Below, in pieces: positions 4,472 to 37,455 of a DNA stretch of 44,937 nt. How positions within the stretch are numbered: the first letter of the stretch is position 1; the number at the start of each line of letters is the position of its first letter. Origin of the DNA: a phage; NCBI GenBank assembly GCA_025700225.1, contig GCA_025700225.1_4339.1. One strand, 5' to 3'. The notes under the pieces were generated by a model that saw nothing but the letters and a program-made list of their open reading frames with translations, was not told where the DNA came from and made no database searches. Position numbers and translations under genes: made by a program.

Positions 4472-4662
4472 TTCGCCCCTTTGAATTTAAAATTGTTGCC
4501 GATGAGTTCCATATCCTGCGCGTATAAAACGGTGAGATACGACCCTGCTAAAGATTTTGCGAAATAGACGCTACACTCTTTGTGGTGTACGAATGAAATA
4601 ACCGCTAGCTCTCCTGTCTCAGTAATCCTTACCAACTGACCCTTCTTAAACATAACCCTCAC
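4468..4662 (-). CDS. hypothetical protein, first gene of leftward early arm
   Basis: 64-aa ORF; RBS GAGGAG upstream; adjacent to divergent control region. Confidence 0.55.
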   Translation of the reverse strand: MRVMFKKGQLVRITETGELAVISFVHHKECSVYFAKSLAGSYLTVLYAQDMELIGNNFKFKGAK

Positions 4663-4675
4663 TCCTCTGTCTCGT

Positions 4676-4721
4676 TTCGATAAGTGAATAGTAGCCTATT
4701 ATATTGGTATGTGCAAGCGAA
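4676..4721. promoter_or_regulatory. promoter-operator motif copy in divergent control region
   Basis: tcgataaGTGAATAGtagcCTATTATATTggtatgtgcaag; near-identical to the copy at 37505-37556 in the opposite orientation. Confidence 0.55.
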
Positions 4722-4892
4722 GATTCGTTGCCGTTGTGATTCTTTGGAGGAGGGTTGTGCCTTTATTCTTTTTACTTGGTAACTAGAGGGCAGGCCTTAA
4801 GGCCTGCCCAATAATAGTTACATTTTTACGGTTGCGAATCTACGGCACTTTAAGAAAATCAGTTACTTAGTAACTTTGAGGGATTTTTACAA

Positions 4893-5035
4893 TAGACTAT
4901 GGCCCTTCCGAACGCGTCAGCGTAACTACACTCAGGACTAACGTCCCGCTCCGTTACATGCCGCGCCGCGGTCGCTTGCTCATACTTCACAAGCTCATGT
5001 GGAGCTTACCATATTTTTAAGTAAAAGTCAATACC
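4893..5035. repeat. conserved ~140-bp non-coding element, copy A (candidate structured RNA / cis-regulatory leader)
   Basis: about 85% identical to 37311-37455 in the same orientation; no ORF; hairpins with compensatory changes. Confidence 0.6.
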
Positions 5036-5078
5036 TGTAGCATCTTTTGTATCTTAGTAACTTTGTTCATGGATTGGG

Positions 5079-5107
5079 TTGCTTTTACATTCCCGCTATC
5101 ATATACT
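5079..5107 (+). promoter_or_regulatory. sigma70-like promoter for the rightward replication operon
   Basis: TTGCTT-N17-TATACT about 30 nt upstream of the GGAGG RBS of the gene at 5139. Confidence 0.5.
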
Positions 5108-5138
5108 TGGCTTCATCAAACAGAGAGGAGGTATATAA

Positions 5139-5321
5139 ATGCAACATTACATGACGCAGAATGAAGTAGCTGAACGTATCGGGGTGACTCGCCAGACAAT
5201 TAATAACTGGTTACGCAGTGGTAAATTCCCTGACTGCTGTATTAAGGTAATGGGCCGCCGATTACCAGGTACATTTGACCGTAATAAAGTTGAAGAATGG
5301 ATTAAGGAGAACGTGAAATGA
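5139..5321 (+). CDS. small HTH DNA-binding protein (AlpA/Xis/MerR-like)
   Basis: 60 aa; MTQNEVAERIGVTRQTINNWLRSGKFP is a classic helix-turn-helix; strong RBS GGAGG. Confidence 0.7.
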   Translation: MQHYMTQNEVAERIGVTRQTINNWLRSGKFPDCCIKVMGRRLPGTFDRNKVEEWIKENVK

Positions 5322-5730: not shown

Positions 5731-7934
5731 ATATCATCTTCGCTACCCTTAGAAACACGTTCGATAAAAACCCGGTCGCGCGCGAGATGCCACTGGAACA
5801 GTTTGTCGAGTTTGTGTGTGATACGTCGAAACGTATGTCCGTCGACCCGTCGTGGACAAAAGAAGAATACGACGCAGCTAAGATTAAGCAGAAGGCTATC
5901 GCTCCTGTTGGTGGTCGCCGTAAAAACGCGATACTCGAAGACAGCGTGGTTAAGTTCGACTTCGACCATCTTACACGCGCGCAGTACCGCGACCTTACCC
6001 GCAAATTCAAGAACGCGCCGTTCTTCAATATTCTGCATACAACGGCGTCGCACCAGCACGCGTGCAAGAACGGTGACTACGCGTTCCGTGTTCTTGTTCC
6101 TGCACGAACCCCGTTTAACACTAACGATGCCTGGATGGTGCAACGCGCTATTTGCGCAGAGTTAGAGATTGACGAATCTCTTCGCGACCACTGCACAGAG
6201 GACGGCAACCGTCTTATCTACCTGCCGCATAAAGAGTCGAAGATAACTGTTACAGAAGGTCGTGTTATCCGCGCCGAACGCTACATAAAAAAAGCTGAGG
6301 GGATGGGGCTTAAGAAACGTGAAGCTAAGACACTTGCCGCCGATGAGCACGGTCTTAACGCGGATATAGCGCATTTTTGCGAAGCAGAGTTGGGCCTTGA
6401 AGCGCTGTCGTCAGGTCGTGGATACGAAGTACCATGCCCCAACGAACACCTGCATACGGGGAAAGGCTCCACCAGTATCATGTTAGATGGTAAAGAGGTG
6501 CGTTTTGTATGTCAGCATACTAACAACGGCTCGTGCACTGAACTTAACCGCCGCCAGCATCTGGCCTTGCGTATGTGCGGTTTACCAGATGAACTGAACG
6601 TTGATAAGCAGCCAATCAGCATCAACAGTATCCGCGCCGCGCTCCCAGATTTACCGGAAGAAGAGATTGAAGAACTGCACCGTACAGAAAACGAAGAATC
6701 GGTAACTTGCACGCTGGAAGACCTTGAAGAAGAGGATGAGTTACCGGAACCGGTAAAGGCCGATTTCGTCGTCGAGGGCTACATGCCGTCAGATTGCATA
6801 TGGGATATCGTCGGTGAGTCCGGCACATATAAGTCTTTCTACACCCTGGGCATGATGTACCTTAGCGCCGCCGGGTACCGGTTCGCAGGCGCTGATACGC
6901 AGCGCTGCCATCACTTCTACATTGACGGGGAAGGCGGCGCGGCTACACGCACACGTATTGACGCACTGGCGGCTAAGTACGGAGAGGAAGGCAAGAACTA
7001 CATCCACGTTATCGATATGGGTGAAGTCGGAAAACTGAAAAGCCTGATTAAGCTGATGCGCGAAACTGCTGGCGACGAGCCAATTGGCATGGTTGCGTTC
7101 GATACCCTCAACCAGACGCTGGCCCTGACTATTGATAAGTTCGACGAGAATAGCTCATCAACGGCAATCGGTATGGGTAAAGTTATCGCCATACTGAAAG
7201 AAGTCCGCGATGCGACTAAAGCTGCCGTTGGAGTTGTACACCACACGCCAAAAGGCGGAAAGAAAGCCCGTGGTAGCGGTGCGCTGTACGCGGGCGTGGA
7301 CGTTGAACTGACAATTGAGCGCGCAACAGACCGCCAGATTAACGTCTCGCACACTAAATTTAAGCACGGGCCGCAACAGAAAACGATTGGTATGGTGCTG
7401 GAGCCGGTGCAGTTTCGTGAAGCCCCTCCACCGAAAGAGTACCGCGCGGTAGAGTTCATCGGTAGCACCGAGGAATACGGCGCAATCGTAAACCTTGACC
7501 TGCCGGAACCCCATAAGGCGCTCGTGTTAATGCCGTGGGGCTTTGAGCCGTTCAAGACAGATGAGGAAAAAGAGCGGGAAGAAGGGCTGTCTAAAGAAGG
7601 GAAAGAAAAAGTAAAGGAAGAAGTTAAACGCGGCAGGGATGAAGTAAGGAAGGAGTCAATACTCTCGGCACTCGAAGACCTGCAACAGTCCGACGACACT
7701 GGCCGCGGGTTTACACAACGGCAGATAGTAGCCAATTCTGGCGACCACTCTATAACTAACCACCATCTTGAGAAGATGCTGAAAGACGGTGAGTTGATGT
7801 TGGGGTGTGACGTTAACGGTGAGGTGATACCGGGAACATACCGGATACCAGAAAAGATGGGGGACAGGCTGAGGCCGAAGACAGTGTACGAACCGAATGA
7901 AATGCTGGTAGTGACCGAGGAGGATTTGGAATGA
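5727..7934 (+). CDS. DNA primase/helicase (N-terminal primase-like region plus P-loop NTPase/helicase domain)
   Basis: 735 aa; Walker A-like GESGTYKS and a second nucleotide-binding region; Glu/Lys-rich C-terminal extension; sits in the replication module. Confidence 0.8.
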   Translation: MNIIFATLRNTFDKNPVAREMPLEQFVEFVCDTSKRMSVDPSWTKEEYDAAKIKQKAIAPVGGRRKNAILEDSVVKFDFDHLTRAQYRDLTRKFKNAPFFNILHTTASHQHACKNGDYAFRVLVPARTPFNTNDAWMVQRAICAELEIDESLRDHCTEDGNRLIYLPHKESKITVTEGRVIRAERYIKKAEGMGLKKREAKTLAADEHGLNADIAHFCEAELGLEALSSGRGYEVPCPNEHLHTGKGSTSIMLDGKEVRFVCQHTNNGSCTELNRRQHLALRMCGLPDELNVDKQPISINSIRAALPDLPEEEIEELHRTENEESVTCTLEDLEEEDELPEPVKADFVVEGYMPSDCIWDIVGESGTYKSFYTLGMMYLSAAGYRFAGADTQRCHHFYIDGEGGAATRTRIDALAAKYGEEGKNYIHVIDMGEVGKLKSLIKLMRETAGDEPIGMVAFDTLNQTLALTIDKFDENSSSTAIGMGKVIAILKEVRDATKAAVGVVHHTPKGGKKARGSGALYAGVDVELTIERATDRQINVSHTKFKHGPQQKTIGMVLEPVQFREAPPPKEYRAVEFIGSTEEYGAIVNLDLPEPHKALVLMPWGFEPFKTDEEKEREEGLSKEGKEKVKEEVKRGRDEVRKESILSALEDLQQSDDTGRGFTQRQIVANSGDHSITNHHLEKMLKDGELMLGCDVNGEVIPGTYRIPEKMGDRLRPKTVYEPNEMLVVTEEDLE

Positions 7935-8128
7935 GCGGTAAATTTAAAGAAGTTAGCGACGAACTGAAAGGTAATAAATACATGAACCACAGAGGTGAGA
8001 TAGTAGAAGTCCTGAATGTTACTACTTATGGCCGTGGTTACCATGTTATATACAGTTACACAGAGGCGTACAGCGTATACTGCGGTCTTGGTAAGTTTAG
8101 GAAAAGATATCCGATAAAAGTAGAGTAA
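7931..8128 (+). CDS. hypothetical protein
   Basis: 65-aa ORF, ATGA-coupled to primase/helicase. Confidence 0.5.
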   Translation: MSGKFKEVSDELKGNKYMNHRGEIVEVLNVTTYGRGYHVIYSYTEAYSVYCGLGKFRKRYPIKVE

Positions 8129-8152
8129 AAAGAAAGGGGCGTTAAGCCCCTT
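8121..8152 (-). terminator. hairpin terminator for the leftward XRE gene
   Basis: stem aaggggc/gcccctt; on the minus strand followed by TCTTTTTACT; XRE stop codon lies in the loop. Confidence 0.5.
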
Positions 8153-8366
8153 GAGTCTGGTCTCCGAAAGCCAACCACTCTGGTTTAACTTCGAGAACTT
8201 CCGCGAGTTTAAACAGAGTGGTTCGACGGACATCCTGAGTTACGCCGAGGGCCAGTTGATTAATTGCCCCCTGGGAAACGCCGACCAGAGTAGCTAAACG
8301 GCGCTGAGACAGGCCAAGCTCTTTACGGCGTTGCTCCATACGAGCGCCAATTGGTGACTGTTGCAT
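8142..8366 (-). CDS. XRE-family HTH transcriptional regulator (Cro/CI-like)
   Basis: 74 aa; LSQRRLATLVGVSQGAINQLA matches the XRE HTH pattern; AAGGAG RBS; lone opposite-strand gene inside the rightward operon. Confidence 0.8.
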   Translation of the reverse strand: MQQSPIGARMEQRRKELGLSQRRLATLVGVSQGAINQLALGVTQDVRRTTLFKLAEVLEVKPEWLAFGDQTQGA

Positions 8367-8387: not shown

Positions 8388-8415
8388 TGATATGTGAATA
8401 GTAGCATATTAATTT
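8388..8415 (-). promoter_or_regulatory. promoter-operator motif copy upstream of XRE gene
   Basis: gtGAATAGtagcATATTA 20-50 nt upstream of the XRE RBS. Confidence 0.4.
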
Positions 8416-8429
8416 TTTGATAAAAAGCG

Positions 8430-8458
8430 TTGACAGGTGAATAGTTGGCTATTATAGT
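8430..8458 (+). promoter_or_regulatory. consensus sigma70 promoter with embedded palindromic operator
   Basis: TTGACA-N17-TATAGT; spacer contains GAATAG-ttgg-CTATTA; divergent from the XRE gene. Confidence 0.7.
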
Positions 8459-8491
8459 TAGCTCATACCAAACGAGAGGAGAGAAAGAAAA

Positions 8492-10115: not shown

Positions 10116-11356
10116 TGATTCTAAAAGAACGCGGCGGCAATAACGACGTACACGCCCTGCTGTCGCCGTCAGGTGCTAAAAAGTGGCTGGCGTGCAGCGC
10201 TTCGTTAGCCTGTGAAAAAGATATCCCGAACACGTCCGGTAAAGCTGCCGTATTAGGCACGGCTATGCACACAATATCTGAGATTCACTTGAATCAGTAC
10301 ATCAAGGGCACTGCGCTACCGTTAGAGCGTGAAGTCGGTGCTTACGTGCTGGATGAGGGTAAAGGCCAGATTAAGGCACTAATCAGCCCGATGAAAGGCG
10401 CGGTACTGATTACGGCGGATATGATTGAGCAGGTTCGCAAGTACACAGACTACTGCAAAGCTATTATCGATGTAGCGACTTACGCCAAGCTGGAAATGCG
10501 CGTCAATCTTACTGAGGTATTGCATCCTGGCTACGAAGGTGTCGAGACGTTCGGGACTGCTGACCTTGTTGCCGTACAGGAACTGGCTAACACCGACGAG
10601 TACATGCTCATTATCGGAGACCTGAAAACTGGACGGCATCGTGTTGAAGCGAAAGAAAACAAGCAGCTTATGCTTTACGCTCTCGGTGTTTATCGCCGAC
10701 TCAAGAGACGTTATAGCATCACCGTGGTTCGTCTGGTCATCTTCCAGCCGTATGCTGGCGGTGCGTCGGAGTGGGACATATCGGTTGAAGGTCTGGAACT
10801 GTTCGCTAAGTTCGCGCAGAAACGTGCGCTGTTAGCTCTTGATGCGTATTTCCGTGGCAAGAAGAACCTGAAAGCGTCAGACTTCAAACCGTCGGTGGAC
10901 GGTTGCCAGTGGTGCCGGTTCTCTGAACAGTGCGCTGCGCGTACAAAGACGGTTAATTCTGTACTGGCAGAAGAACTGGATGGCGACTTCGCGCTGGAAC
11001 TGACGCCAGAGCAACTTGTAGCTGAATATGAGAAGTTGCCGTTGTTGCGCCAGCATATCGACAAGGTAGAAAAAGCGATGTCTGCCGCGTTGCATTACGG
11101 TAAGAAAGTGCCGGGATACAAGTTGGTGGAAGGCCGTCCGGGTAATCGTGCGTGGAAAGACGCCGACAAGGTGGCTGAGAAATACGGCGACAAGCTGACT
11201 AAAGAAGTGCTCATGACGCCGACCGAAGCGGTTAAGGTTATCCCGGAAGAAGAACTGAAAGACTTCATCACACGTAAGCCAGGTTCACCATGTGTAGCAA
11301 CGGTAGACGACAAACGGCCTGAGTGGAATCAGGTAACAGAGGAGGATTTAGAATGA
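10112..11356 (+). CDS. PD-(D/E)XK exonuclease, Cas4/RecB-like with Fe-S Cys cluster
   Basis: 414 aa; N-terminal LACSASLAC and C-terminal CQWCRFSEQC (CX2CX5C) as in Cas4/AddB nucleases; replication-module context. Confidence 0.75.
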   Translation: MMILKERGGNNDVHALLSPSGAKKWLACSASLACEKDIPNTSGKAAVLGTAMHTISEIHLNQYIKGTALPLEREVGAYVLDEGKGQIKALISPMKGAVLITADMIEQVRKYTDYCKAIIDVATYAKLEMRVNLTEVLHPGYEGVETFGTADLVAVQELANTDEYMLIIGDLKTGRHRVEAKENKQLMLYALGVYRRLKRRYSITVVRLVIFQPYAGGASEWDISVEGLELFAKFAQKRALLALDAYFRGKKNLKASDFKPSVDGCQWCRFSEQCAARTKTVNSVLAEELDGDFALELTPEQLVAEYEKLPLLRQHIDKVEKAMSAALHYGKKVPGYKLVEGRPGNRAWKDADKVAEKYGDKLTKEVLMTPTEAVKVIPEEELKDFITRKPGSPCVATVDDKRPEWNQVTEEDLE

Positions 11357-11604
11357 TTCGTAAAATGTTCAGAGTACTTGGCGGGTTTGTAGCGTGTATT
11401 GTTTTCTGGGTTCTTATGCTTCCTCTGACGATACCAACATTTGTCTTAATGTGCCTTACGGTGTGTATAACGCAAACACGTGACATTGAAGCCATCCTGA
11501 ATGACAAATCGTGGAAGACACAGGCGCTTCGTTCCATAAACAACATGAAATGGCCAAACAAGTATATTGAGATAGTTGAGAAAATAACTGGCTGGAAGTG
11601 TTGA
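11353..11604 (+). CDS. small membrane protein (two predicted TM helices)
   Basis: ATG at 11353 coupled to upstream stop; hydrophobic VLGGFVACIVFWVLMLPLTIPTFVLMCLTVCI. Confidence 0.5.
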   Translation: MIRKMFRVLGGFVACIVFWVLMLPLTIPTFVLMCLTVCITQTRDIEAILNDKSWKTQALRSINNMKWPNKYIEIVEKITGWKC

Positions 11605-11629
11605 CACCTGAATAGTTAGCTATTATAGT
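11601..11629 (+). promoter_or_regulatory. consensus sigma70 promoter with embedded palindromic operator
   Basis: TTGACA-N17-TATAGT with GAATAG-ttag-CTATTA in the spacer; 55 nt upstream of the SSB-like gene. Confidence 0.7.
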
Positions 11630-11686
11630 TCTAATCACTGGCCGGGCAGCTTCCCGGAGTAAACTGAAAAACTGAGGAATCGAGAG

Positions 11687-15054: not shown

Positions 15055-15335
15055 CCCCGGAAGGCAAAATACAGAAATACGCGAAAGAGCGATTCGAGGC
15101 CCTCGGAGGCCTCGTTAGAAAATTGTCGTACGAAAATAGAGTAGGCGCCCCCGACCTGTTAGTAATCCTCCCCGGCGGCATCATCTGGTTCGTCGAGGTG
15201 AAGAAAGACGAAAATACGAAGCCAGACCCGCACCAGCTACGTGAGCACGAACGGCTGCGTAAACGCGGTGCAAATGTTTTTGTCGTTGGCTCGTTTAAAC
15301 AGGTTGACGACCTAATAGCAAACTATTATAGTTAG
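15051..15335 (+). CDS. VRR-NUC domain nuclease (PD-(D/E)XK)
   Basis: about 94 aa; GAPDLLVILPGG...FVEVKKDE carries the D...EVK signature; frequent partner of SNF2 helicases in phages. Confidence 0.75.
   Translation: MTPEGKIQKYAKERFEALGGLVRKLSYENRVGAPDLLVILPGGIIWFVEVKKDENTKPDPHQLREHERLRKRGANVFVVGSFKQVDDLIANYYS
15304..15332 (+). promoter_or_regulatory. consensus-like sigma70 promoter with perfect palindrome TAATAG-N4-CTATTA
   Basis: TTGACG-N17-TATAGT inside the 3' end of the VRR-NUC gene, 35 nt upstream of the next gene. Confidence 0.55.
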
Positions 15336-17830: not shown

Positions 17831-17964
17831 ATATCATAGCTCCGATTCCGGCATTGCAAAAACGTATCAAGGAACTCGAAGAAGAGGTTCTACGACTACG
17901 ACAGCAAAGAGACGCTGCTAATGCGCAACTGGCGTTTGTACTGGAGAAGTTATCAGAAGAGTAG
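17827..17964 (+). CDS. small coiled-coil protein (45 aa)
   Basis: ATGA-coupled; heptad-like KELEEEVLRLRQQRDAANAQLAFVLEKL. Confidence 0.35.
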   Translation: MNIIAPIPALQKRIKELEEEVLRLRQQRDAANAQLAFVLEKLSEE

Positions 17965-17966
17965 AG

Positions 17967-17997
17967 AAAAGGCCCCGTTTGGGGCCTTATTTTTTTT
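17967..17997. terminator. bidirectional intrinsic terminator at the convergent junction
   Basis: stem aaggcccc/ggggcctt followed by T8 on plus; placed between the end of the rightward operon and the tail-fibre stop. Confidence 0.75.
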
Positions 17998-19753
17998 ACA
18001 CTAGTTTTGTAACAGTAAAAGCGAATGCGCTTGATATACCTGCGCCGCCGACAGTGTTCCTCAGTGTAACCCTGAAGCTGGTTGTGCTGGTGTATATAAC
18101 ATCACAACTCACGGAATCAGGGGCGCTTACAGGGGTTACTTGCACTACGTATCCGTTGGAGGATGCCGCTAAGGCATGGGAAAATGTTACATCGTAAACT
18201 CCGGTTGCTACCTGGTTAACTGAGGACACACCAGGGGCGATGTTGATGGTTCCGTTGGCATTTATCTTACCAGAGCGAGGAATGCTGCCCGCAGATACAG
18301 AAGTAGTCTTACTGGTTTGTTCCATGAACGTACAACCAATATCAATTACTTCGCAATTAGCGCCGGTAACCCAGTACGGCCTTGCGCTACTTGGCACATA
18401 AGAGCCTACACTCTGGAATGTTGTTCCGTTGAGGATTACGGTCACCTTGCCGCCGCCTGAACTTGTGATATTTAAGTTCTGTATGGTGTACATGGAACTG
18501 CTGACACGGTGGAAATTACCACCGTTAATGACTACGGTGACAGGGCGGGTTCCTGTATTATCAATTACAAGGTCCGCTCCACCCTTATTTGCTTCGAAAT
18601 ATGGATTGTTCAGCACGAGTGCACCGGAACCATTTAAGCCATTCACCGCGATGTTCATTCCACCAGTGCTTAAATTATCTTGGGTACCATTACCCTCGCA
18701 GGTTAACCCTGTAATGGTGTCACCTGCACCCCAGCTGTCACCTAAAATGCCCCAATCTGAATTATCGCTTGCAGTAATGCGGTTAAAACTAACTGCGTTT
18801 AACTCTGAACCAGTACTACTAGCAAGCACTCGGAGGCCGATGCGGTTAGATTGCAGATACACATTATCCAAATCTGAGGTCAATACATCCTCCAGACGAA
18901 GACCTTCACCGTTAGTGTGCCCGTACGATACGAAGTCATGTAGGCGCGTATACGCCTTGCCTTTAATATGCATGCCGTAAGAAGTGCTGTTTCCTTTAAG
19001 GGTGAAGCCGCCAACGGAGTCGTAAGCATGTACTCGTTGAGATGTGAATGTGCTGTCCCCGAGCATCTTCATGTTAAAATCGGCAACCTGACAGTTGAAG
19101 ATTGTCTCTGCCATATTATCGCCGGAGTAGTGCGCACGAACTCCAGGAGACCCAATAAAGGCAGCGTCAAAGTTGCCATAATCAAGGACGAGGGGGGTAT
19201 CTACGTCATAAACCCCATGCTTTATTTTCAGAGCCCCGCCTAAAGGCCAATTAGTTAAGGGGTCCTGGTATATAGAGGAATCAATGCGACCTATCACATC
19301 GGACACCGATTCGGTATTACTGTATGCCACGAGGTCAGCGCCTTTACCTTCGTCGGGGTTCGCGAGGTCAGCCCTCAAATCAGGGTCCGTTTGTGGCTTC
19401 CAGTTAGCGTTACCAACCGGGTTAAACGACGCAGGGACAACAACCGGCAGCGTACCAGCGTATGAGTACCACGTCTGGCTAACCGGGTCGTAAACCACTT
19501 TGTCGCGGTCATTAACTGTTAACGTACCGCCGGTGGAAAAGTCCCATGACACCGGAGAAAAACCTGCGTCGCGTAACACCGCAGGAAGCGTCTTCTGTGT
19601 CTGCCCTGTAACGGCATTGGTTGCGTAATCAATATCGGCACCGCCAGCGACACCCCCGGATTTGCCGGTGATGACCTCAGCTTCAAAAATCTGATGTTTC
19701 TTGGCGGTCTGTAAATCCGCCAGACTTAAAACGTCACCGCATCCGCTTGACAT
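17996..19753 (-). CDS. tail fibre / tailspike-like receptor-binding protein
   Basis: 585 aa; last gene of the tail operon; Gly/Asn/Thr-rich repetitive central region of the kind seen in beta-helical phage fibres. Confidence 0.65.
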   Translation of the reverse strand: MSSGCGDVLSLADLQTAKKHQIFEAEVITGKSGGVAGGADIDYATNAVTGQTQKTLPAVLRDAGFSPVSWDFSTGGTLTVNDRDKVVYDPVSQTWYSYAGTLPVVVPASFNPVGNANWKPQTDPDLRADLANPDEGKGADLVAYSNTESVSDVIGRIDSSIYQDPLTNWPLGGALKIKHGVYDVDTPLVLDYGNFDAAFIGSPGVRAHYSGDNMAETIFNCQVADFNMKMLGDSTFTSQRVHAYDSVGGFTLKGNSTSYGMHIKGKAYTRLHDFVSYGHTNGEGLRLEDVLTSDLDNVYLQSNRIGLRVLASSTGSELNAVSFNRITASDNSDWGILGDSWGAGDTITGLTCEGNGTQDNLSTGGMNIAVNGLNGSGALVLNNPYFEANKGGADLVIDNTGTRPVTVVINGGNFHRVSSSMYTIQNLNITSSGGGKVTVILNGTTFQSVGSYVPSSARPYWVTGANCEVIDIGCTFMEQTSKTTSVSAGSIPRSGKINANGTINIAPGVSSVNQVATGVYDVTFSHALAASSNGYVVQVTPVSAPDSVSCDVIYTSTTSFRVTLRNTVGGAGISSAFAFTVTKLV

Positions 19754-19765
19754 ATAGAGTCCTCT

Positions 19766-22321
19766 TTAATAAAAACCGTTGCTGAATCCGTCGGAGAAAC
19801 CGCGACCGAAAGGTGCGACGCCGTCGTATTTGTAGAAACCTTCATCATAGTTGTAGCCTGTAATCTTAACCGTGCGGTCGTCGCCAGGGTCGATTGAAGA
19901 GACAACTATCCTCTGTGCATTATGCCTTGCTTCGTTGCCGAATGAAAACTCAGTTTTTAGCGCACTATTCCCTGTATAGATTGCTTCCTCCGGCGCAGAG
20001 AGCATAATAACCTCGCGGTCGTGGCTTCCTTTGATAACAGAAATACTCTGCACCGAGCCGTCGCGCTTCTTGAGGATGATTGAGTGGTCGTCTCCAGGAG
20101 TGAAAGTAACAGGCTGTGACAGCGTCAACGTAAGCCCATTAACGGCGACAACATAACCATCCTGTGGCGCGATACGAGAACCTTTAACCACGCTGATTAC
20201 ACCCCCAGGTGTAGCGAGCGCACCCTCTTCAGTAGCTTCGAACTCAACGACAACTTTGCTTAACGCATTGCGCTGGTATCGACGCCACGCCAGCCAGTAC
20301 GCCTGTTGGTAGTTGCGCACGCCCTTAGACTCATATTCCTCGGTGTTAGCACCGAGTTCCTCAGGGATATAAATGGTTTCCTGTACGTTCGTATCGGGGT
20401 CGATGTATGAGAACGACAGGCTATCGTAAGTCGTAGAATCGTTGAAAGTGCGTGTCCATTTCTCCGTACCGGTTGTTTTGCTGCGGTGAGTGAATACCAT
20501 TTCAGGTCCTGCAACCGGTCGGTCGAAGCGCAGCATAACATCCGCGCCTTTACGATACGCAGTACAGAACACGGCTTCCGCTATGGTCTGGACGATATCC
20601 TGCATCGTGGTGTCGTAATCATCGAACGTGTAACAGAATTGTCCGGCTAACTCACTGCCGAAATAGGATTCAATTTCTTCCTGAACGGCGAGTAACTTAT
20701 CCATGTTTGCAGTCGTCAGCTCCAGATTGCCGACAGCCGGGTCGCGGGCCAGTCGGATTAGCGACTGCACAGCCTGCGTGTTCGGCGTCATTACCGTGTC
20801 AAATACACCGTTGCCGAGGTATTTATAACACATCTCGGTCGCAATCATGCGCAGTTCCGGGTTGTCGATACTGGCGGCACGCGGTGTCTGTTTACGTGCG
20901 CAATGTACAGTGGTCCGGTTGCCGTAATGTGGGGTCGTGTCCAGTGACTGCCCGTACAGGTTAATGAAGGTTATTTCGTCGCTTACTGTCCCTTCGTAAT
21001 CCTTATCAAAATTAGTTATACGGCGCATACGGGCGCGGAAGCGCGATGCTGTTGGCAACTGCCCATAGATAGACGTACCGACATAATCCGTACTATTACC
21101 AGTAATCGTGGCCTGCACAGTGTATATATCGCTTAACGGATTACGTTGCGAGTCAATCATCTGGTACTGGAGTTCTACTGTTACGCTGGTGCGGTTATAG
21201 CCGCCGTCGTATTTGTAGAGGCCGTTTTGCCCCGCAACGTTAACGAGCACCCGGTCAACTTCACCGCGCACCATGTAATACCAGTCGGTAAGCGACACAT
21301 CATAAGTGTTGCTCGGGCCTATAAACGTATCTGAACGCTCGGTTAAGGTGTACGTCTGCCCGCTGGTTAACGCGGCCCAGTTGGACGCTCCGTTTACCGC
21401 CAGCCTGACTTCGAAGTCGTCAACGTATAAAACCTCAAACGAGCCGTTCAGGTTAGTGACGTCAGCGACGTCAAAGTTGCTGAGCACCGCCACATCGCCA
21501 ACGCTAAGAAACTCCGAAAACGCAGAGTCGCCGGACGGGTCGTAGATATACCCGGTGTTAGAAATACGCTTGGCGGTTCCGTCGGCGCTTGGGTTAGCCC
21601 CAATATCGTTTGGCGCTTTCAATACAATGCCGTCTACATCATCATTGGAGTAGGTGACGTATAACTTCTGGTCAATGATATCGCCGATTTGCAACTGCGG
21701 TGATGTCGTATTGTTGGGTGATGTGTATGGTGCATACACGGCAACAGACGACCCCGTAATGTCGCTTATCAGGGTGTCACCTTCTGTAACGCCGTCTGCT
21801 TCAATATGCAGATGTCCGCGACCGGCGTCATAGTAAGAATACTCAAGCAAAGCACCGGTAGAATTGAACGCCTTATACGTTTGCATCAGGTCATTAGGGA
21901 TGGTCTGCACGGTGCCGCAGATGTCATAAGAGCGCTCGTACGGCCGCGGCTTGTTTGAGCGGTCCGTGAGGCTGTTGTTTGGTGATGTTGTCTGATTGTT
22001 TGTCGCCGTGTAGTTGGCGTTGGCCGACATGTTAAGACCAAACAGTTTTGCTATTGGCTTGAGGATAAAACCAAAGACCTTACTAACCGCACCAAGCGCA
22101 CCACTACCAGCACCCTCGATAATGTGGTAAACCGCTTCTTCATCTTTAAGTGCATCGAAGTCATCGGTTACGTCAGTATCCTCTCCGATTTCACCGAGGT
22201 AGACGCGCACGGGCACACCGTCCGGGATACGGTTGACTACAAACTCCATCGGCATCCCGGTGTGCTTTGTGCGGTCGAATGCTCCGTCAGCGTTTCGTGT
22301 GTAATGCAGGATTATCGCCAA
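19766..22321 (-). CDS. tail tip / host specificity protein (J-like central fibre)
   Basis: 851 aa; follows the NlpC/P60 tail assembly gene as lambda J follows K/I. Confidence 0.6.
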   Translation of the reverse strand: MAIILHYTRNADGAFDRTKHTGMPMEFVVNRIPDGVPVRVYLGEIGEDTDVTDDFDALKDEEAVYHIIEGAGSGALGAVSKVFGFILKPIAKLFGLNMSANANYTATNNQTTSPNNSLTDRSNKPRPYERSYDICGTVQTIPNDLMQTYKAFNSTGALLEYSYYDAGRGHLHIEADGVTEGDTLISDITGSSVAVYAPYTSPNNTTSPQLQIGDIIDQKLYVTYSNDDVDGIVLKAPNDIGANPSADGTAKRISNTGYIYDPSGDSAFSEFLSVGDVAVLSNFDVADVTNLNGSFEVLYVDDFEVRLAVNGASNWAALTSGQTYTLTERSDTFIGPSNTYDVSLTDWYYMVRGEVDRVLVNVAGQNGLYKYDGGYNRTSVTVELQYQMIDSQRNPLSDIYTVQATITGNSTDYVGTSIYGQLPTASRFRARMRRITNFDKDYEGTVSDEITFINLYGQSLDTTPHYGNRTTVHCARKQTPRAASIDNPELRMIATEMCYKYLGNGVFDTVMTPNTQAVQSLIRLARDPAVGNLELTTANMDKLLAVQEEIESYFGSELAGQFCYTFDDYDTTMQDIVQTIAEAVFCTAYRKGADVMLRFDRPVAGPEMVFTHRSKTTGTEKWTRTFNDSTTYDSLSFSYIDPDTNVQETIYIPEELGANTEEYESKGVRNYQQAYWLAWRRYQRNALSKVVVEFEATEEGALATPGGVISVVKGSRIAPQDGYVVAVNGLTLTLSQPVTFTPGDDHSIILKKRDGSVQSISVIKGSHDREVIMLSAPEEAIYTGNSALKTEFSFGNEARHNAQRIVVSSIDPGDDRTVKITGYNYDEGFYKYDGVAPFGRGFSDGFSNGFY

Positions 22322-22677
22322 AATTCAATCTCCGTGTACGTGTCTCTGAGGTCAGAAAGGCGGTCGAGACGCACCTGACGTGACGCCATCTCGCAATGAC
22401 TCACCATACCATCAAAATACACCCCAGCGTGCCACACAATACGCCCGCTACGGCGATAACCAAGCAGAACAGCACACATGTTTTCAGGCTTATCTATCTT
22501 CGTTAGCCCTTTCGGGTTACGGTGGCCCTGCTCAAATGCCGTGTCTATCGCCGTTGGGCTGGTTACGTCGAAAGCGGGGGTATCAAGCCCCGCATCTGCA
22601 CGCACCATGCGGACATGCTGCCAGCAATTACGCTTACGGAAATCATACGGCAGCCCGGTATAATCGTTGATATTCAT
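22312..22677 (-). CDS. tail assembly protein, NlpC/P60-like (lambda K-like)
   Basis: 121 aa; candidate Cys/His catalytic residues (NCWQH, WHAG, SHC). Confidence 0.6.
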   Translation of the reverse strand: MNINDYTGLPYDFRKRNCWQHVRMVRADAGLDTPAFDVTSPTAIDTAFEQGHRNPKGLTKIDKPENMCAVLLGYRRSGRIVWHAGVYFDGMVSHCEMASRQVRLDRLSDLRDTYTEIEFWR

Positions 22678-23189
22678 GTTGTCAGAAGACCGCGAAGTAG
22701 TGGTATCTCTTTAGGTGTCATCAGTATACCAGTGCTTCGTTGGTTCAGCATAGGTGTACCGACGTCCGCCGAGAACTCGCCTTTCTCCTGGTTGATTGCC
22801 TGCAACTCATACACGACAGGACCATCTGCAGGGTACGACAGGTCTGTGCTGACGTAGCGCCGGAAGATGAACTTCGGCAACTCGGTATTACTCATCGGAA
22901 TTTTATCCATCTCGTCGTCAAGTTGATTGAGGATATCCGGCAGAGTAAACGTCGTCGTCTGGTCCATATCGCTGTTGTTAGCCGCCCCCGACGCCTCCAT
23001 CGGGGTGGGATCGAACGTGATAGTTTCGCCAGTCTCCAGTGTTGCCGTAAGTTCCTGTAACCCGCGCACAAGATAGTACGTCTTCGACAGCAATGGGTGG
23101 CTGATTTGCAATGTGATGTAATCCATCTCGCCGTCTGGGTTTGACGCGAGCTTACGGCGATAGGCTGCTTCTACTGATTCCTGGCTCAT
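22674..23189 (-). CDS. minor tail protein (L-like position)
   Basis: 171 aa; position between distal tail and K-like genes. Confidence 0.5.
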   Translation of the reverse strand: MSQESVEAAYRRKLASNPDGEMDYITLQISHPLLSKTYYLVRGLQELTATLETGETITFDPTPMEASGAANNSDMDQTTTFTLPDILNQLDDEMDKIPMSNTELPKFIFRRYVSTDLSYPADGPVVYELQAINQEKGEFSADVGTPMLNQRSTGILMTPKEIPLLRGLLTT

Positions 23190-23192
23190 AAG

Positions 23193-24578
23193 TTAACCGT
23201 CCACATTAAAATCAATACGGGTTATATATTTACTACCCCACGCAGAATTAGCTTGGGGAATGGCGGCGTAATCGTCAACAGCCTGAACGTTTATCACGGA
23301 GCCGTCGGAATAGGTAACGTCAATACTTGTTGCGCCGTTCATTGCTACTTTTGCCGATGCCGTTGGTCTGGTCGCAGGGGTTGTTGGCGCTGCGATATAT
23401 GAAGTTCTAAGTGAACCTGGCTCTAGTTGTAGTATATTTGCGTAAAAAACTGACCCTACAGGGATTACGTGGTCCCCCGTCGCTGCGCGAACACGTAACT
23501 GGGCTGTGTAGGTTTCGGTTACTTGGGCGGTGTAAGTGGCGGAAAAGAAGATAGAGCCATCGCCCATAATGTATGTGGTTACGTCAGAATATCCGCTGTC
23601 GCTAATATATTGCCCGTCTAACAGGTCGATGAATACACTAGCGGCAGCGGTTGATAATCCTGCCATTCTAATGCGCAATCTCCCGTAAGAGCCGCGTATA
23701 ACCCCCGAAAATGTTACAGAGTCGCCAGATGAAATATCTACATTAGAACTAATAAATGTAGCATCTTCTCTGGATGTCAATGTTGTTATTTTTCCGGCAA
23801 CCAGTAGATTATTAGGATCGACCTCTGACTCTACTGAAATCTGATTTGTCGAAAACCCCCACTCAGATGGGTTTTGACTTTCATTAAATAGGTTTTTGCT
23901 GCTATCCTCAGGCGGAACACGACCAACTGCCACCCCATCAATAAACGTAATGGGCCATTCATTAGCAACTGACTGCACAAGATTGCCGTTTCTGTTGATG
24001 TAGTAAACCTGTGGCCCTTCGTAAACGATACGGCTATCAAGAGTCGACGCCAGAAGGTTAATCGGCGGATAACCGGCAGGGCCTTCGTTACTCCAGATAC
24101 GAGGGAACGTTGTTTCGTAGTTCGCGTATATCTTAAGGAAACTGCCCAGACAATCCCCGTAACAGCCATACAAATCTGGCAGATTGTTAATCAGGCACTG
24201 GTTCTCAAGGTCCTGGAACGGTGATTTCTCAGCGGTTGCCGTGAAAGTTATCGTCCAGTTAATCCCGTCTTCCGTAGACTCGGCGATGGTGGACGTAATG
24301 GTTACCTGATAATCCGCGATACCCATGCCGAAGTCGTGCGCCATCCAGAAACTGGACGCGCCGCCGTCTACTTTCTCAAGAAACGCAAGGAAAGTCTGGC
24401 GTCCAAGCGCGGAGGTGATGAGCGTCACACTTACAGGGAACACGTCGTAATACGTGTCACGCCCCTGACGGACGCCACCTCCAGCTAAATCAACACTCCA
24501 GACGTTGTTACGTCTGGTCATTGAGTAGCCTTTTGATACCACAGGCTTAAGGCTACGTGGAAAAAATAAGTCACCCAT
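23193..24578 (-). CDS. minor tail protein (distal tail protein-like, M position)
   Basis: 461 aa; first gene after tape measure. Confidence 0.5.
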   Translation of the reverse strand: MGDLFFPRSLKPVVSKGYSMTRRNNVWSVDLAGGGVRQGRDTYYDVFPVSVTLITSALGRQTFLAFLEKVDGGASSFWMAHDFGMGIADYQVTITSTIAESTEDGINWTITFTATAEKSPFQDLENQCLINNLPDLYGCYGDCLGSFLKIYANYETTFPRIWSNEGPAGYPPINLLASTLDSRIVYEGPQVYYINRNGNLVQSVANEWPITFIDGVAVGRVPPEDSSKNLFNESQNPSEWGFSTNQISVESEVDPNNLLVAGKITTLTSREDATFISSNVDISSGDSVTFSGVIRGSYGRLRIRMAGLSTAAASVFIDLLDGQYISDSGYSDVTTYIMGDGSIFFSATYTAQVTETYTAQLRVRAATGDHVIPVGSVFYANILQLEPGSLRTSYIAAPTTPATRPTASAKVAMNGATSIDVTYSDGSVINVQAVDDYAAIPQANSAWGSKYITRIDFNVDG

Positions 24579-24678
24579 TATTAAAACCTCGATAGATTGG
24601 ATGTTATGGCAAGGATAACATGGAGGGGAAGCCTAAACTACACCATACATATGGCCCTTTCGGGCCATATTTTTGTTA

Positions 24679-26991: not shown

Positions 26992-27256
26992 CTTCTCTGC
27001 CCTCAAATATTCCGTCTAAGCCCATGATAACCTCGGCTTCGAACAAACTTATGCCGTAACCGGCGACATCACGAAACGCTACCAAATCTTGCCATTTGAG
27101 CGCATCGCGCGGGATTATAACGATAGTATCATCTGTTTCGCGCTGTAGGAATTTAATGGCACGGTATTTCTCGAACACGTCGATAAGAGAAACGGGGCAT
27201 TCAGGCCCCGTCGCTTCTTTCATCTGCGGTTCTTTAATCACGCCCATTGCAATCAA
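26984..27256 (-). CDS. tail assembly chaperone T-like segment (probable frameshift extension of G)
   Basis: 90-aa ORF in the -1 frame relative to the upstream chaperone; overlaps tape measure start. Confidence 0.45.
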   Translation of the reverse strand: MIAMGVIKEPQMKEATGPECPVSLIDVFEKYRAIKFLQRETDDTIVIIPRDALKWQDLVAFRDVAGYGISLFEAEVIMGLDGIFEGREDG

Positions 27257-27345
27257 AGCCGCCTGGTGCCCCGCCGCGATGTCGTCGAATTGCTTACGCT
27301 TGTGACGGTCAACAAAACACCATTGCGCAAATTCATACAGCGCTT

Positions 27346-27762
27346 TTACTTTTCAGATAGTTTCTCGCGGCTATCGGTGTGATGCTTAACTACGGCCTCC
27401 GCCAGCCCACTGTACTGGTCGAATAGGTTAGCCAGCGCCTCTTTGCTGAACGGTTCGTCGAATGACCAACCGGTGACGATTTCCACGGCAAGCTGCTTGT
27501 TCAGGTCCATCACCCGCCAACCCTTCTCATCGTTATAGCGCGCCCAGTTATTCAGCGCCTCGCACTCTTTATCTAATGGCGCAAGTTCTTCCGTAAGGCG
27601 TCGAATTGCCGTTGTGTAGGCGCGGCCTGCGCGAACACCGGCATCGCAATCGGGGCCGATAACCTGCAGCCATTCACCGGAATCTTTACCACTCGGCAGA
27701 AGGATGGGCATTTTAGTGCCTACAGCATGGCGGTCAGCAAAATAAAAATCAGAAAGTTTCAT
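27346..27762 (-). CDS. tail assembly chaperone (G-like)
   Basis: 138 aa; immediately upstream of the T-like ORF and tape measure. Confidence 0.55.
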   Translation of the reverse strand: MKLSDFYFADRHAVGTKMPILLPSGKDSGEWLQVIGPDCDAGVRAGRAYTTAIRRLTEELAPLDKECEALNNWARYNDEKGWRVMDLNKQLAVEIVTGWSFDEPFSKEALANLFDQYSGLAEAVVKHHTDSREKLSEK

Positions 27763-27867
27763 TCTTTAATCCTTTGGTTAAGAGGTTACTGGTTAAGATT
27801 AACGCGCCAGACGGGAACCACCCGCTTTTCGTGTGCGACACTAGGCGCAAACTTATTCTAGCACACT

Positions 27868-27905
27868 ACTTGCACACCCCAATATAATAGGGCACTATTC
27901 ACCTG
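27868..27905. promoter_or_regulatory. promoter-operator motif copy (TTGCAC...TATAAT rightward; TAATAG-N4-CTATTC palindrome)
   Basis: 35 nt upstream of the plus-strand island gene at 27924; reverse reading faces the chaperone gene. Confidence 0.55.
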
Positions 27906-27923
27906 TAACTTACTGAGGAAATA

Positions 27924-28253: not shown

Positions 28254-28318
28254 TCGCCTTTATTTAAATGAATGCACTGTGGTTAAATAGGACAAATCCT
28301 AAACACGAGGAAGTAGGC

Positions 28319-30488: not shown

Positions 30489-30516
30489 GAAAAAGGCCCC
30501 GAGAGGGGCCTTAGTT
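30488..30516. terminator. bidirectional intrinsic terminator
   Basis: stem aaggcccc/ggggcctt, loop gaga; T-rich flank on both strands; between kinase stop and major tail protein stop. Confidence 0.75.
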
Positions 30517-37207: not shown

Positions 37208-37229
37208 GTTTCTCCTTTCTCGATAAGTA

Positions 37230-37255
37230 AAGCCCCGCCCTAAAGCGGGGCGCTA
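37230..37255 (-). terminator. GC hairpin upstream of Rz (attenuator/terminator on minus strand)
   Basis: stem gccccgc/gcggggc; on the minus strand followed by TTTACTTATC and then the Rz RBS. Confidence 0.45.
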
Positions 37256-37310
37256 GTCCTTATCATTTAAACATAGAAACGGCGTAATCTTAAGATAATT
37301 CTCAGACAAG

Positions 37311-37455
37311 TAGACTGGCGGCCTTCCGGATACGTCAGCGGAACTACACTCAGTGCTTACGCACCGCTCCGTTCCCTGCCGCAACGCGGTCGCTTGCGAT
37401 AACTCACAAGCTCAGGTGGAGCTTAGCATATTTTTAGTGAAAAGTCAACTATTAG
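37311..37455. repeat. conserved ~140-bp non-coding element, copy B
   Basis: about 85% identical to 4893-5035, same orientation; stem positions covary. Confidence 0.6.

Follow-up and report, generated by a model that had tools for sequence, protein, structure and literature searches.

A repeated structured RNA, predicted on the minus strand behind its own promoter, heads two gene units in a Kagunavirus genome

Two copies of a non-coding element

The window analysed here, the whole 44,937-nt stretch of contig GCA_025700225.1_4339.1, is a Kagunavirus genome whose longest direct repeat consists of two copies of one element, A (4893-5031) and B (37311-37448). The repeat search pairs 4893-4979 with 37311-37397 (87 nt, 80% identity) and 4982-5031 with 37399-37448 (50 nt, 86%), in the same orientation and 32.4 kb apart, which agrees with an earlier note on this DNA, and both copies are, as it had said, intergenic. 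A covariance model built from relatives matches the window at copies A and B only (140.6 and 112.5 bits); no third or diverged copy was found with it, the next-best score in the window being 8.7 bits.

Gene order was taken from the annotated relative Golestan and from PHROG matches in the window. Copy A heads a minus-strand unit of small ORFs, holins and endolysin, which would run on to terminase and portal should the window be a whole genome in circular permutation, as the Golestan order suggests. Copy B heads a 19-kb minus-strand morphogenesis unit (Rz, scaffold, major capsid and tail genes) that contains strong same-strand terminators at 34860, 30512 and 27212. Locus A of the window carries a sequence type otherwise seen at the Rz locus, and copy B shares stem variants with types otherwise seen at locus A. 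The features of the two loci, with structures as predicted, are as follows.

5003..5031, minus: copy A promoter, -35 TTGACT at 5031-5026, 14-nt spacer, TG at 5011-5010, -10 TAAGCT at 5008-5003
G4996 or A4995, minus: copy A predicted start
4974..4994, minus: copy A 5' hairpin (H1), GCUUGU-GAAGUAUGA-GCAAGC, from RNAalifold and the single-sequence MFE fold
4908..4971, minus: copy A long irregular stem-loop, basal CCG:CGG, then GGCGCG:CGCGUU and GUAAC:GUUAC
4948-4933, minus: copy A apical hairpin, CGGGAC-GUUA-GUCCUG
4890..4907, minus: copy A 3' tail, predicted single-stranded, AAGGGCCAUAGUCUAUUG
4788..4809, minus: copy A GC-rich hairpin, GGGCAGGCC-UUAA-GGCCUGCCC, read from the sequence and folded
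37420..37448, minus: copy B promoter, -35 TTGACT at 37448-37443, TG at 37428-37427, -10 TAAGCT at 37425-37420
G37413, minus: copy B predicted start
37392..37411, minus: copy B H1, GCUUGUGA-GUUA-UCGCAAGC, 8 bp with a tetraloop, aligned with H1 of copy A in alignment A3
37326..37389, minus: copy B long irregular stem-loop, P3 helix GGAAC:GUUCC
37366-37351, minus: copy B apical hairpin, CGGUGC-GUAA-GCACUG
37307..37325, minus: copy B 3' tail, AAGGCCGCCAGUCUACUUG, from alignment A3
37222..37251, minus: copy B leader terminator, GCCCCGC-UUUA-GGGCGGGGC followed by UUUACUUAUC, from the terminator scan

Two 43-aa minus-strand ORFs overlap the copies. A coding reading was rejected, as every frame is stopped in the commonest variant; the absence of a conserved ORF had been claimed earlier and is upheld. 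Element length ranges from 121 to 124 nt among variants, so that reading frame is not preserved, single-nucleotide indels break the frame, and no frame was found open in every variant. Members of the family are sometimes annotated as an ORF, for example gp08 of phage Jersey.

Promoter and predicted fold

The pattern TTGACT-N14-TGn-TAAGCT, which is exact in copy A, has, allowing up to two mismatches, just two matches in the window, and these form the right edges of copies A and B. Its -35, TG and -10 are conserved across variants, the letters of the spacer and the "n" being variable, and Jersey has an equivalent layout, TTGACT-N14-TGt-TACGCT. Jersey also repeats its -10 hexamer TACGCT three bases downstream. 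The -10 hexamer TAAGCT agrees with the consensus at only three of six positions, and this site is missing from the generic promoter scan. All of the other recognisable promoters in the window belong to a different family, with an AATAG..CTATT palindrome. At locus A a second promoter lies between the downstream hairpin and the first gene. The copy B promoter is the sole credible sigma-70-type promoter upstream of the Rz-scaffold-capsid-tail unit; other minus-strand promoter matches in 17900-37300 reach only 9/12 and occur at chance frequency.

Transcripts begun at these promoters would have untranslated leaders of 206 and 334 nt. The predicted RNA has two stem-loops, a 21-nt H1 that begins 2-3 nt past the predicted start in both copies and a 64-nt irregular stem, and the order is completed by a conserved tail, UUCGGAAGGGCC…CUAUUG. 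Separate predictions for the two window copies agree on this architecture, as do those for 11 of the 13 variant types, and it is kept in Jersey with helix sequences that are largely different (H1 there is ACGCU-UUC-AGCGU). H1 is free to change in sequence and loop; the basal stem and the tail are not. The tail, UUCGGAAGGG...CUAUUG, is near-invariant in Kagunavirus and Jerseyvirus copies and unpaired in the consensus fold, and both it and the internal loop GAGUGUAG are specific unpaired sequences that are strongly conserved. The palindrome AAGCTC-N5-GAGCTT, which the earlier note had counted among its hairpins, shares its right arm with the 5' arm of H1. It was rejected as an RNA hairpin, since it extends across both the -10 hexamer and the predicted start.

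Covariation

All of the substitutions quoted in the earlier note are present, namely GGAC-taac-GTCC against GTGC-ttac-GCAC, a change in AAGCTC-N5-GAGCTT that is confined to its centre, and GCCGC-gcc-GCGGT against GCCGC-aac-GCGGT, and its view that they are non-random is confirmed: among related phages, at least seven combinations of complementary arms occur in the first hairpin, which is the apical stem. Both the apical stem sequence and its loop vary (GUAA, GUUA, GUCA, UGUAG, AUUA, CUCA, CACA). Between copy A and copy B pairing is kept through changes of U-A to G-C (A3 columns 50:85), of C-G to U-A (39:96) and, in the apical stem, of GA:UC to UG:CA. Compensatory changes are seen at A3 columns 39:96, 50:85, 61:73, 62:72 and 63:71, and three Watson-Crick types (C-G, U-A and A-U) occur at 39:96, which is 52:123 in the larger alignment A4.

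Covariation among homologues of related phages was looked for and found. Over 43 distinct variants pairing is kept in 95.5% of cells, and double changes occur at 14 of 26 pairs, counts that overstate the number of independent events because the variants are interrelated and one alignment was fitted to the model. A MAFFT alignment gives 94.9% paired cells and a covariation score of 0.194, against 0.084 in shuffles (0/500). Such abundant compensatory change supports the proposal that the sequence is constrained by structure, as opposed to a neutral duplication.

The third hairpin of the earlier note was described as differing in its loop only. That change is there, but one of the bases concerned covaries with a base 57 alignment columns away. 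On the minus strand this local hairpin, CCGC-GGC-GCGG, is locally compensated in one variant (L041), and the long-range helix is favoured over it by the three-state covariation at 39:96 and by the MFE folds. The two pairings may alternate.

Polarity of the RNA

The minus strand folds better in all 31 of 31 variants, with a mean MFE of -40.2 kcal/mol against -29.2 on the plus strand, a difference of about 11 kcal/mol, and the RNAalifold consensus energies are -20.2 and -10.9, respectively. Fold z-scores against shuffles are -2.9 and -2.1 for the two minus-strand leaders and -0.97 for the plus-strand element. On the shared structure, 77 cells are G·U on the minus strand and 12 on the plus strand; 65 of the minus-strand G·U cells become A·C mismatches if read on the plus strand. 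In H1, 6 of 31 variants have minus-strand U·G wobbles that would be C·A mismatches on the plus strand.

These results bear on a plus-strand RNA, which the earlier note had preferred, either as a 5' leader to the genes at 5139 (HTH) and 37578 (membrane protein) or as a small RNA ending in AAGCUC-N5-GAGCUU and a U-run. Both copies do lie 100-120 nt upstream of these plus-strand genes, and in both the terminator scan picks out AAGCTC..GAGCTT, with ACCATATTTT or AGCATATTTT after it, as resembling a terminator. However, the plus-strand fold is no better than its shuffles and less stable in every variant, and the G-T apposition that had been cited for the plus strand is no evidence for it, since the overall wobble asymmetry points the opposite way. 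The terminator look-alike is absent in Jersey-type copies, where an A-rich run, in place of a U-run, comes after the corresponding hairpin. To the left there is no conserved plus-strand promoter, and the flanks there differ between the loci. A separate promoter at 37514-37547, a copy of a repeated promoter, intervenes between copy B and the membrane gene, and the HTH gene has only a by-eye candidate (5079-5107, TTGCTT-N17-TATACT) that the promoter scan does not list. The plus-strand RNA and terminator reading was thus rejected on fold energy, wobble asymmetry and its loss in Jersey.

What that note had offered as an alternative, leftward transcription from a minus-strand TTGACT-N17-TAAGCT promoter into the leader of the minus-strand genes, is the reading favoured by the fold, wobble and promoter evidence. 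We consider it highly probable, judging from sequence, that each copy encodes a minus-strand structured RNA with its own promoter.

Downstream hairpins

Every locus type has, at an equivalent relative place, a hairpin of different sequence. At copy A the GC-rich hairpin lies ~80 nt past the element; it lacks a good U-tract and is not called by the terminator scan. The copy B terminator has eight pairs, seven of them G-C, and a U-rich tail; it lies 15 nt before the Rz start codon (37207) and is conserved in the B loci of relatives. The copy B promoter is followed 160 nt downstream by a good intrinsic terminator, and since this is the sole credible promoter of the 19-kb unit, read-through seems obligatory. 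Hairpins at A-type loci and in Jersey have poor U-tracts and so may not be terminators at all. The downstream hairpin occurs in at least four unrelated sequences and at variable distance, which speaks for an effect exerted at a distance and makes a local switch by alternative pairing less likely.

Distribution

A search of the whole window against Rfam 15 at gathering thresholds gave no match, and permissive filters on 4660-5140 gave only sub-threshold chance matches on the flanking hairpin; a tRNA/tmRNA scan yielded nothing relevant. No homologue was found in 5,426 E. coli genomes, whether as host or prophage sequence. In a plasmid collection the single match is a 44-kb record with two matching places that appears to be a misfiled phage genome, and pattern scans of IMG/VR give matches solely in Guernseyvirinae-like contigs of ~40-45 kb. 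The copy that is universal adjoins Rz and head genes, not replication genes. The model has no match in Serratia phages Eta and Tsm2, Hafnia phage TS33 or Salmonella phage PSDA-2; PSDA-2 and Tsm2 have significantly structured leaders at the same position, with short motifs in common. A search of the accessible literature found no paper describing the element, and genome papers give only generic promoter and terminator predictions. The passages searched in the one RNA-seq report on a relative (PMC12645636) contain no strand-resolved or non-coding-transcript analysis.

Discussion

A possible mechanism can be outlined from these features. Host RNA polymerase with sigma-70 would start at the extended -10 promoter TTGACT-N14-TGn-TAAGCT, and the first ~110 nt transcribed would form, in order, a short hairpin at the 5' end, the long irregular stem-loop and the conserved tail, left unpaired; a variable spacer, the GC-rich hairpin and the genes would follow. 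Once folded, the nascent RNA would act in cis on the polymerase that is making it, either unaided or helped by a factor from the host or an unrecognised one from the phage, and so carry that polymerase past the hairpin or terminator of the leader and past the strong terminators inside both long units. Because the only credible promoter of the 19-kb unit, that of copy B, has a good terminator 160 nt downstream, we infer, tentatively and with chances somewhat short of even, a cis-acting processive antitermination leader, analogous to HK022 put or to lambda PR'-6S-tR' and unrelated to them in sequence. A stronger form, in which the nascent RNA alone suffices, is conceivable and rather unlikely; the element would then found a new family of antiterminator RNAs, like put in action but not homologous to it, and the first such family from virulent (non-lambdoid) phages.

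Among ~40 small ORFs compared with PHROG, none is annotated as a Q- or N-like antiterminator; most match PHROG families of unknown function, which leaves room for an unrecognised antitermination factor. A motif search and inspection by eye of the leaders found no boxA, ops-like or -10-like pause motif.

The put RNA suppresses intrinsic and Rho-dependent terminators in cis, an activity abolished by mutations in the zinc-binding domain of the RNA polymerase beta' subunit. The likeness of the present element to HK022 putL and putR lies in two related copies, each downstream of a host-type promoter (predicted here) that heads a long operon, in compensatory differences between the copies, and in terminators downstream in both systems. 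As described, put is ~70 nt long and forms two stem-loops with bulges and internal loops; it has two copies per genome that head operons and show compensatory differences, needs no dedicated protein, and in the case of putL directly follows the promoter (PMC9378689). The RNA considered here is also predicted to form two stem-loops but differs in their details, in its length (~92 nt plus a conserved tail), in its host genome, a virulent Guernseyvirinae siphovirus as opposed to a lambdoid temperate phage, and in heading lysis and morphogenesis units instead of early operons. No homology to put was detected with the model, run with filters off on 3 kb of the HK022 immunity region (best score 6.3 bits, E = 0.54), and Rfam holds no put model.

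At lambda PR' a sigma-70 promoter whose -35 is likewise TTGACT is followed by a ~200-nt leader and an intrinsic terminator ahead of the lysis and morphogenesis genes, in a late unit that runs for tens of kb with further terminators inside. Copy B resembles this PR'-qut-6S-tR' layout, with its -35 TTGACT promoter, its leader, a terminator at 37251-37232 and the Rz start at 37207; at copy A the likeness is weakened by the poor U-tract of the hairpin. No Q homologue was recognised among the ~40 small ORFs, and a -10-like pause element in the initially transcribed region reaches a 3/6 match in copy A (AAGTAT at +10) and is not found in copy B. The leader RNA here is, moreover, structurally conserved with covariation, which is no defining feature of the lambda leader. 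The lambda nutL and nutR sites likewise occur as two copies in the 5' parts of two operons with an RNA hairpin in the signal, and the present element shares the two operon-heading copies and the involvement of a hairpin. A search for boxA (CGCUCUUA / GCUCUUUA) upstream of the hairpin, however, gave nothing closer than 2-3 mismatches of 8 in either leader; boxB has a conserved loop, in contrast to the apical hairpin here, which is free to change in loop and stem; and the element is ~4-fold longer, with no N-like family among the ~40 small ORFs (N proteins are poorly conserved). In Bacillus, EAR (eps-associated RNA), like other cis-acting leaders of processive antitermination, is a structured leader RNA that makes polymerase resist downstream terminators whatever their sequence. 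Similarly, the element is predicted to give a long operon a structured leader; the organisms are different and the element has no notable Rfam match.

Other functions for a minus-strand RNA have to be weighed. It may be a stand-alone, trans-acting sRNA of ~165 nt (copy B) or 190-210 nt (copy A) that ends at the downstream hairpin, acts on mRNAs or proteins of the host or the phage, and uses the tail as seed or binding site. This is consistent with a modular cassette at two loci, in which each copy combines a promoter of its own with a conserved structured body and, at the 3' end, a hairpin; with the separate promoter of the genes downstream at locus A; and with the conserved tail (UUCGGAAGGG..CUAUUG), which is predicted to be unpaired. 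Such an sRNA would leave the essential 19-kb unit at locus B with no other credible promoter, so that its transcripts have to run through the hairpin. The hairpin at locus B ends in a U-rich tail; those of the A loci and of Jersey do not have the U-tail expected of an efficient sRNA terminator. Together with the lack of a homologue in E. coli genomes, this makes the sRNA unlikely.

We also regard as improbable a stability or processing element in the 5' untranslated region, in which H1 would guard the long late mRNAs against decay that depends on the 5' end, and the long stem would serve either for processing of the RNase III type or as a barrier to Rho loading along the untranslated leader. 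The long untranslated leaders are in keeping with it, as are the position of H1, which in either copy opens 2-3 nt past the predicted start, and a ~20-bp stem with internal loops that resembles known RNase III substrates. The conserved unpaired internal loop (GAGUGUAG) and tail (UUCGGAAGGGCC) nevertheless exceed the needs of a generic stabiliser, H1 is changeable in sequence and loop, the basal stem and tail being fixed, and the terminator between element and genes is left unexplained.

It is very unlikely that the element acts as DNA, whether as a cruciform, a protein-bound site or a transcription-primed replication origin with a structured primer RNA and an AT-rich stretch. The palindrome AAGCTC-N5-GAGCTT does overlap the -10 and start in both copies, the Jersey -10 TACGCT likewise has an inverted partner (AGCGTA), and copy A adjoins the HTH and primase-helicase genes, with an AT-rich stretch after the element. 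A duplex or cruciform would be strand-symmetric, however, and the asymmetry in wobble pairs (77 vs 12) and the 11 kcal/mol strand difference instead indicate a single-stranded RNA of one polarity. Nor is the universal copy placed beside replication genes, and the palindrome arms shrink to 5 bp, with another spacer, in seven type-7 locus-A variants (L083, L089, L090, L103, L104, L113 and L121). A plus-strand RNA, on the evidence given above, is so improbable that it can be set aside.

Guernseyvirinae comprise hundreds of sequenced phages of E. coli and Salmonella, many of them proposed for therapy, whose genomes carry genes for neither an RNA polymerase nor a sigma factor, nor for any antiterminator that can be recognised. 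At minimum, the element is an undescribed RNA family with good covariation support that has been mis-annotated as a protein gene. Located close behind the predicted promoters of the late units, this structured RNA is also a testable candidate control point for lysis and virion genes. Should it prove an antiterminator that works as RNA alone, phages would have their second such family, put being the first, and long synthetic operons a compact part. In the stronger, RNA-only form of the proposal, a portable cassette of promoter, ~110-nt RNA and hairpin would render the RNA polymerase of E. coli or Salmonella resistant to terminators, and would define the late (lysis and morphogenesis) class of Guernseyvirinae genes without a phage polymerase, a sigma factor or a Q- or N-type protein.

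A Repeated Intergenic Element in Guernseyvirinae

In megablast searches against phage records, both loci match phages of Escherichia, Salmonella, and Raoultella at 80%–91% identity. These belong to the genera Kagunavirus and Jerseyvirus (subfamily Guernseyvirinae), for which the 44.9-kb window is about one whole genome. Gene order was taken from a fully annotated relative, Golestan, and key genes of the window were confirmed with PHROGs. An earlier note had described two intergenic copies of an element in the same orientation and with no conserved ORF, and the description is borne out on each point: 4893–4979 aligns with 37311–37397 (80%) and 4982–5031 with 37399–37448 (86%) in one orientation, both copies lie between genes, none of the three sense frames is free of stops in the commonest variant, and single-base indels distinguish variants from one another. 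Every hairpin difference it quoted is present in the sequence. The two copies form the window's longest direct repeat, and a covariance-model search finds exactly two in the window:

4893–5031, minus strand: copy A, at locus A, by the HTH/primase-helicase module
37311–37448, minus strand: copy B, at locus B, by the Rz spanin gene

A perfect palindrome, GTTACTTAGTAAC, lies immediately left of copy A, and a 13-nt direct repeat, CTTAGTAACTTTG, on either side of it (sites noted with the repeat: 4862–4874, 4866–4878, and 5054–5066); they may represent an operator or else a scar of recombination. Salmonella phage Jersey has comparable palindromes, GTAACTT..AAGTTAC, in its locus-A leader (L057, 38895–38910).

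Two pattern scans of IMG/VR together with the covariance-model search yielded 68 copies from relatives, 43 of them distinct, which sort into ~10 sequence types. By BLAST the element is in 181 phage records, ~43 of which have two copies; the best-matching copy in these relatives adjoins the Rz gene, and the second, at locus A, is confined to a subset of Kagunaviruses. Jersey has a strongly diverged element at locus B (32 bits with the covariance model), and the same search finds none at its locus A. No model match was obtained in the more distant relatives examined or in the E. coli genomes searched. Jersey gp08, a “hypothetical protein” (NC_021777.1, 7265–7456), overlies the promoter and the diverged element (model match 7301–7408) and is unlikely to be a gene; a “hypothetical protein” is likewise annotated across the element in several Kagunavirus records.

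Significantly structured leaders occupy the same place, between the terminator of the head-decoration gene and Rz, in Salmonella phage PSDA-2 (L053, 1075–1215, z = −3.5) and Serratia phage Tsm2 (L055, 1848–1925, z = −2.6). Although the model misses both, AUAGUCUAUU, CAUUCGGAAAG, GCCCUAGCGGCGACC, and an apical hairpin capped by GUAA are short motifs that they share with the element. The family may extend beyond the members shown. Two-copy IMG/VR contigs include L012, L022, L038+L083, L033+L089, L050+L090, L029+L104, L013+L014, L024+L025, L041+L042, and L040+L113. In each one compared, the copies are of different sequence types with an identical fold; divergence with compensation may be selected because it protects against deletions arising from recombination between the 140-bp direct repeats.

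Promoters

Read on the minus strand, both copies carry TTGACT-N14-TGn-TAAGCT at their right edge, and this pattern has only these two matches in the window. The −35, TG, and −10 are kept across variants, the spacer letters and the “n” are not, and Jersey preserves the layout with TACGCT as its −10. The −10 TAAGCT is weak (3/6 against consensus), and a generic promoter scan did not list the site; we take it as a promoter because of the extended −10 TG and the pattern of conservation. Transcription is predicted to start at G4996 (copy A) and G37413 (copy B). In Jersey (7283–7325) the −10 hexamer is doubled at a distance of three bases, TACGCT-ACC-TACGCT, and both hexamers are complementary to AGCGTA of the first hairpin; the doubling is absent from Kagunavirus copies.

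The remaining recognizable promoters of the window all come from a different family, organized around a spacer palindrome, AATAG-N4/5-CTATT; one layout accounts for six copies and another for three. This is the “phage promoter” motif reported in genome papers (PMC9825357).

TTGCAC-N17-TACTAT, with common leader CACTTATCGAAACGAGA: 2842–2862(−), 4684–4704(−), 8394–8414(−), 8437–8457(−), 27882–27902(+), 37527–37547(+)
TTGACA-N17-TATAGT: 8425–8459(+), 11596–11630(+), 15299–15333(+)

The palindrome resembles an operator, to which one of the two small HTH proteins (5139–5321 or 8142–8366) would bind. The element's tail likewise ends with a CTATTG half-site. Within the replication operon, a gene-start context, GAGGAGGATTTGGAATGAG / GAGGAGGATTTAGAATGAT, recurs at two gene junctions (7911–7942 and 11333–11364).

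Fold, Covariation, and Strand

Folded singly, the two window copies independently adopt the same architecture, with which RNAalifold and 11 of 13 variant types agree. Its predicted parts, on the minus strand, are:

H1, the first (5′) hairpin: starts 2–3 nt after the predicted 5′ end
Long irregular stem-loop, 64 nt: basal CCG:CGG, a helix with pair 39:96, a short helix, GUAAC:GUUAC, and an apical hairpin
3′ tail: UUCGGAAGGGCC...CUAUUG, conserved, predicted unpaired

The 31 variants, aligned with MAFFT, have 94.9% of cells paired and double changes in five pairs; they score 0.194 for covariation versus 0.084 for shuffled alignments (0/500), and sliding the partners destroys the pairing. A model-fitted alignment of 43 variants, which leans towards structure, gives 95.5% and double changes in 14 of 26 pairs. 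Pair 39:96 (alignment columns) occurs as C-G, U-A, and A-U, and is not a single inherited event, since close types differ simultaneously in both positions; pair 50:85 occurs as U-A, G-C, and A-U. The apical stem is found as GGGAC/GUCC, GGUGC/GCAC, GGGGC/GCCC, CACG/CGUG, GUGCC/GGCAC, GGGCGU/ACGCCC, and GGGCGC/GCGCCC. Jersey has a perfect 10-bp helix in place of the interrupted mid-stem, and its H1 becomes ACGCU-UUC-AGCGU. Apical loop and stem vary freely; conservation falls on the basal stem, the tail, and an internal loop (GAGUGUAG-like), which marks these three as the likely contact surface. The long-range helix has a competitor in CCGC-GGC-GCGG, a local hairpin proposed in the earlier note, which shows local compensation in one variant (L041); the two may alternate.

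The functional strand is the minus strand, on which several lines of evidence agree. It folds better in all 31 distinct variants (mean MFE −40.2 versus −29.2 kcal/mol) and in consensus folding (−20.2 versus −10.9). On the shared helix set, G·U cells number 77 on the minus and 12 on the plus strand, and 65 cells are wobbles on the minus strand that would be A·C mismatches on the plus; this count is partly biased, since it uses a structure obtained from the minus strand; the energy difference is free of that bias. The minus-strand leaders of the window beat shuffles (z = −2.9 and −2.1), and the plus-strand element does not (z = −0.97). A plus-strand terminator look-alike, AAGCTC-N5-GAGCTT with a T-run, is gone in Jersey-type copies, where the run is A-rich on that strand. 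The earlier note was partly right: its structure-constrained RNA stands, but the strand and target genes it had favored were wrong, the plus strand being rejected on fold energies, wobble asymmetry, and the lost look-alike, and the minus-strand promoter and leader it listed as an alternative is the supported reading.

Transcription Units and Possible Mechanism

A GC-rich hairpin lies 50–100 nt downstream (minus strand) of the element in every locus type, in at least four unrelated sequences. At Kagunavirus locus B it is a good intrinsic terminator (eight pairs, seven of them G-C, then UUUACUUAU) ending 15 nt ahead of the Rz start; the U-tract is poor at locus A and in Jersey. Copy B heads ~19 kb of minus-strand genes (Rz/Rz1, scaffold, major capsid, connector, and tail), with strong same-strand terminators inside at 34860, 30512, and 27212. 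Copy A heads small ORFs, two holins, and an endolysin, and the corresponding unit of Golestan runs on into terminase, portal, and head morphogenesis genes. No other credible promoter was found in the window ahead of the morphogenesis unit, and a strong bidirectional terminator (37795–37815) closes the unit upstream of copy B. From this context we infer that essential late-gene transcription must start at the copy B promoter and pass a terminator 160 nt on.

It is chiefly this that makes us read the element as a leader rather than solely as a small RNA gene. The best-supported explanation, though a tentative one, is a cis-acting leader that controls elongation as a read-through signal: the nascent RNA, once folded, would act unaided or with a host or unrecognized phage factor to make polymerase resist both the leader hairpin and the internal terminators. 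We favor it because the element directly follows a promoter, two copies head the two long units, the cassettes are apparently interchangeable between loci (locus A of the window holds a type elsewhere found at locus B, and copy B has H1 and helix variants common to locus-A types), and no recognizable Q, N, sigma, or RNA polymerase gene was found in the Golestan annotation or by PHROG searches of the window. A further point in its favor, which also speaks against a local alternative-pairing switch, is that the element does not depend on what sequence the downstream hairpin has or how far away it lies. Of the main rivals, a stand-alone sRNA, for which that hairpin would be the 3′ end, is unlikely, and a leader for stability or processing is unlikely to the same degree. 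DNA-level roles are improbable, and the plus-strand reading can be given next to no weight.

The bidirectional terminators at 17969–17988, 30493–30512, and 37795–37815 have arms AAGGCCCC...GGGGCCTT in common, lie at junctions of convergent units, and appear to be a reused module.

Comparison with Known Systems

By analogy, HK022 putL/putR would be closest in proposed working, and the layout is like that of the lambda PR′-6S-tR′ late leader. Membership in the put family was rejected for lack of similarity, and a nut site was rejected, as the element has no boxA and its apical hairpin varies freely. At lambda PR′, a second −10-like element induces sigma-dependent pausing; unlike the lambda Q system, the element has no conserved −10-like pause element, and the searches found no Q homologue. 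Rfam contains nothing resembling it, no description was found in the literature searched, and the one transcriptome study of a relative (PMC12645636) reports, in the passages searched, no strand-resolved or non-coding-transcript analysis. The element is an undescribed structured RNA family in Guernseyvirinae, best read as a promoter-proximal leader of late units. Its interest is moderate to high, and would be high if it is true that RNA-only antitermination operates here.
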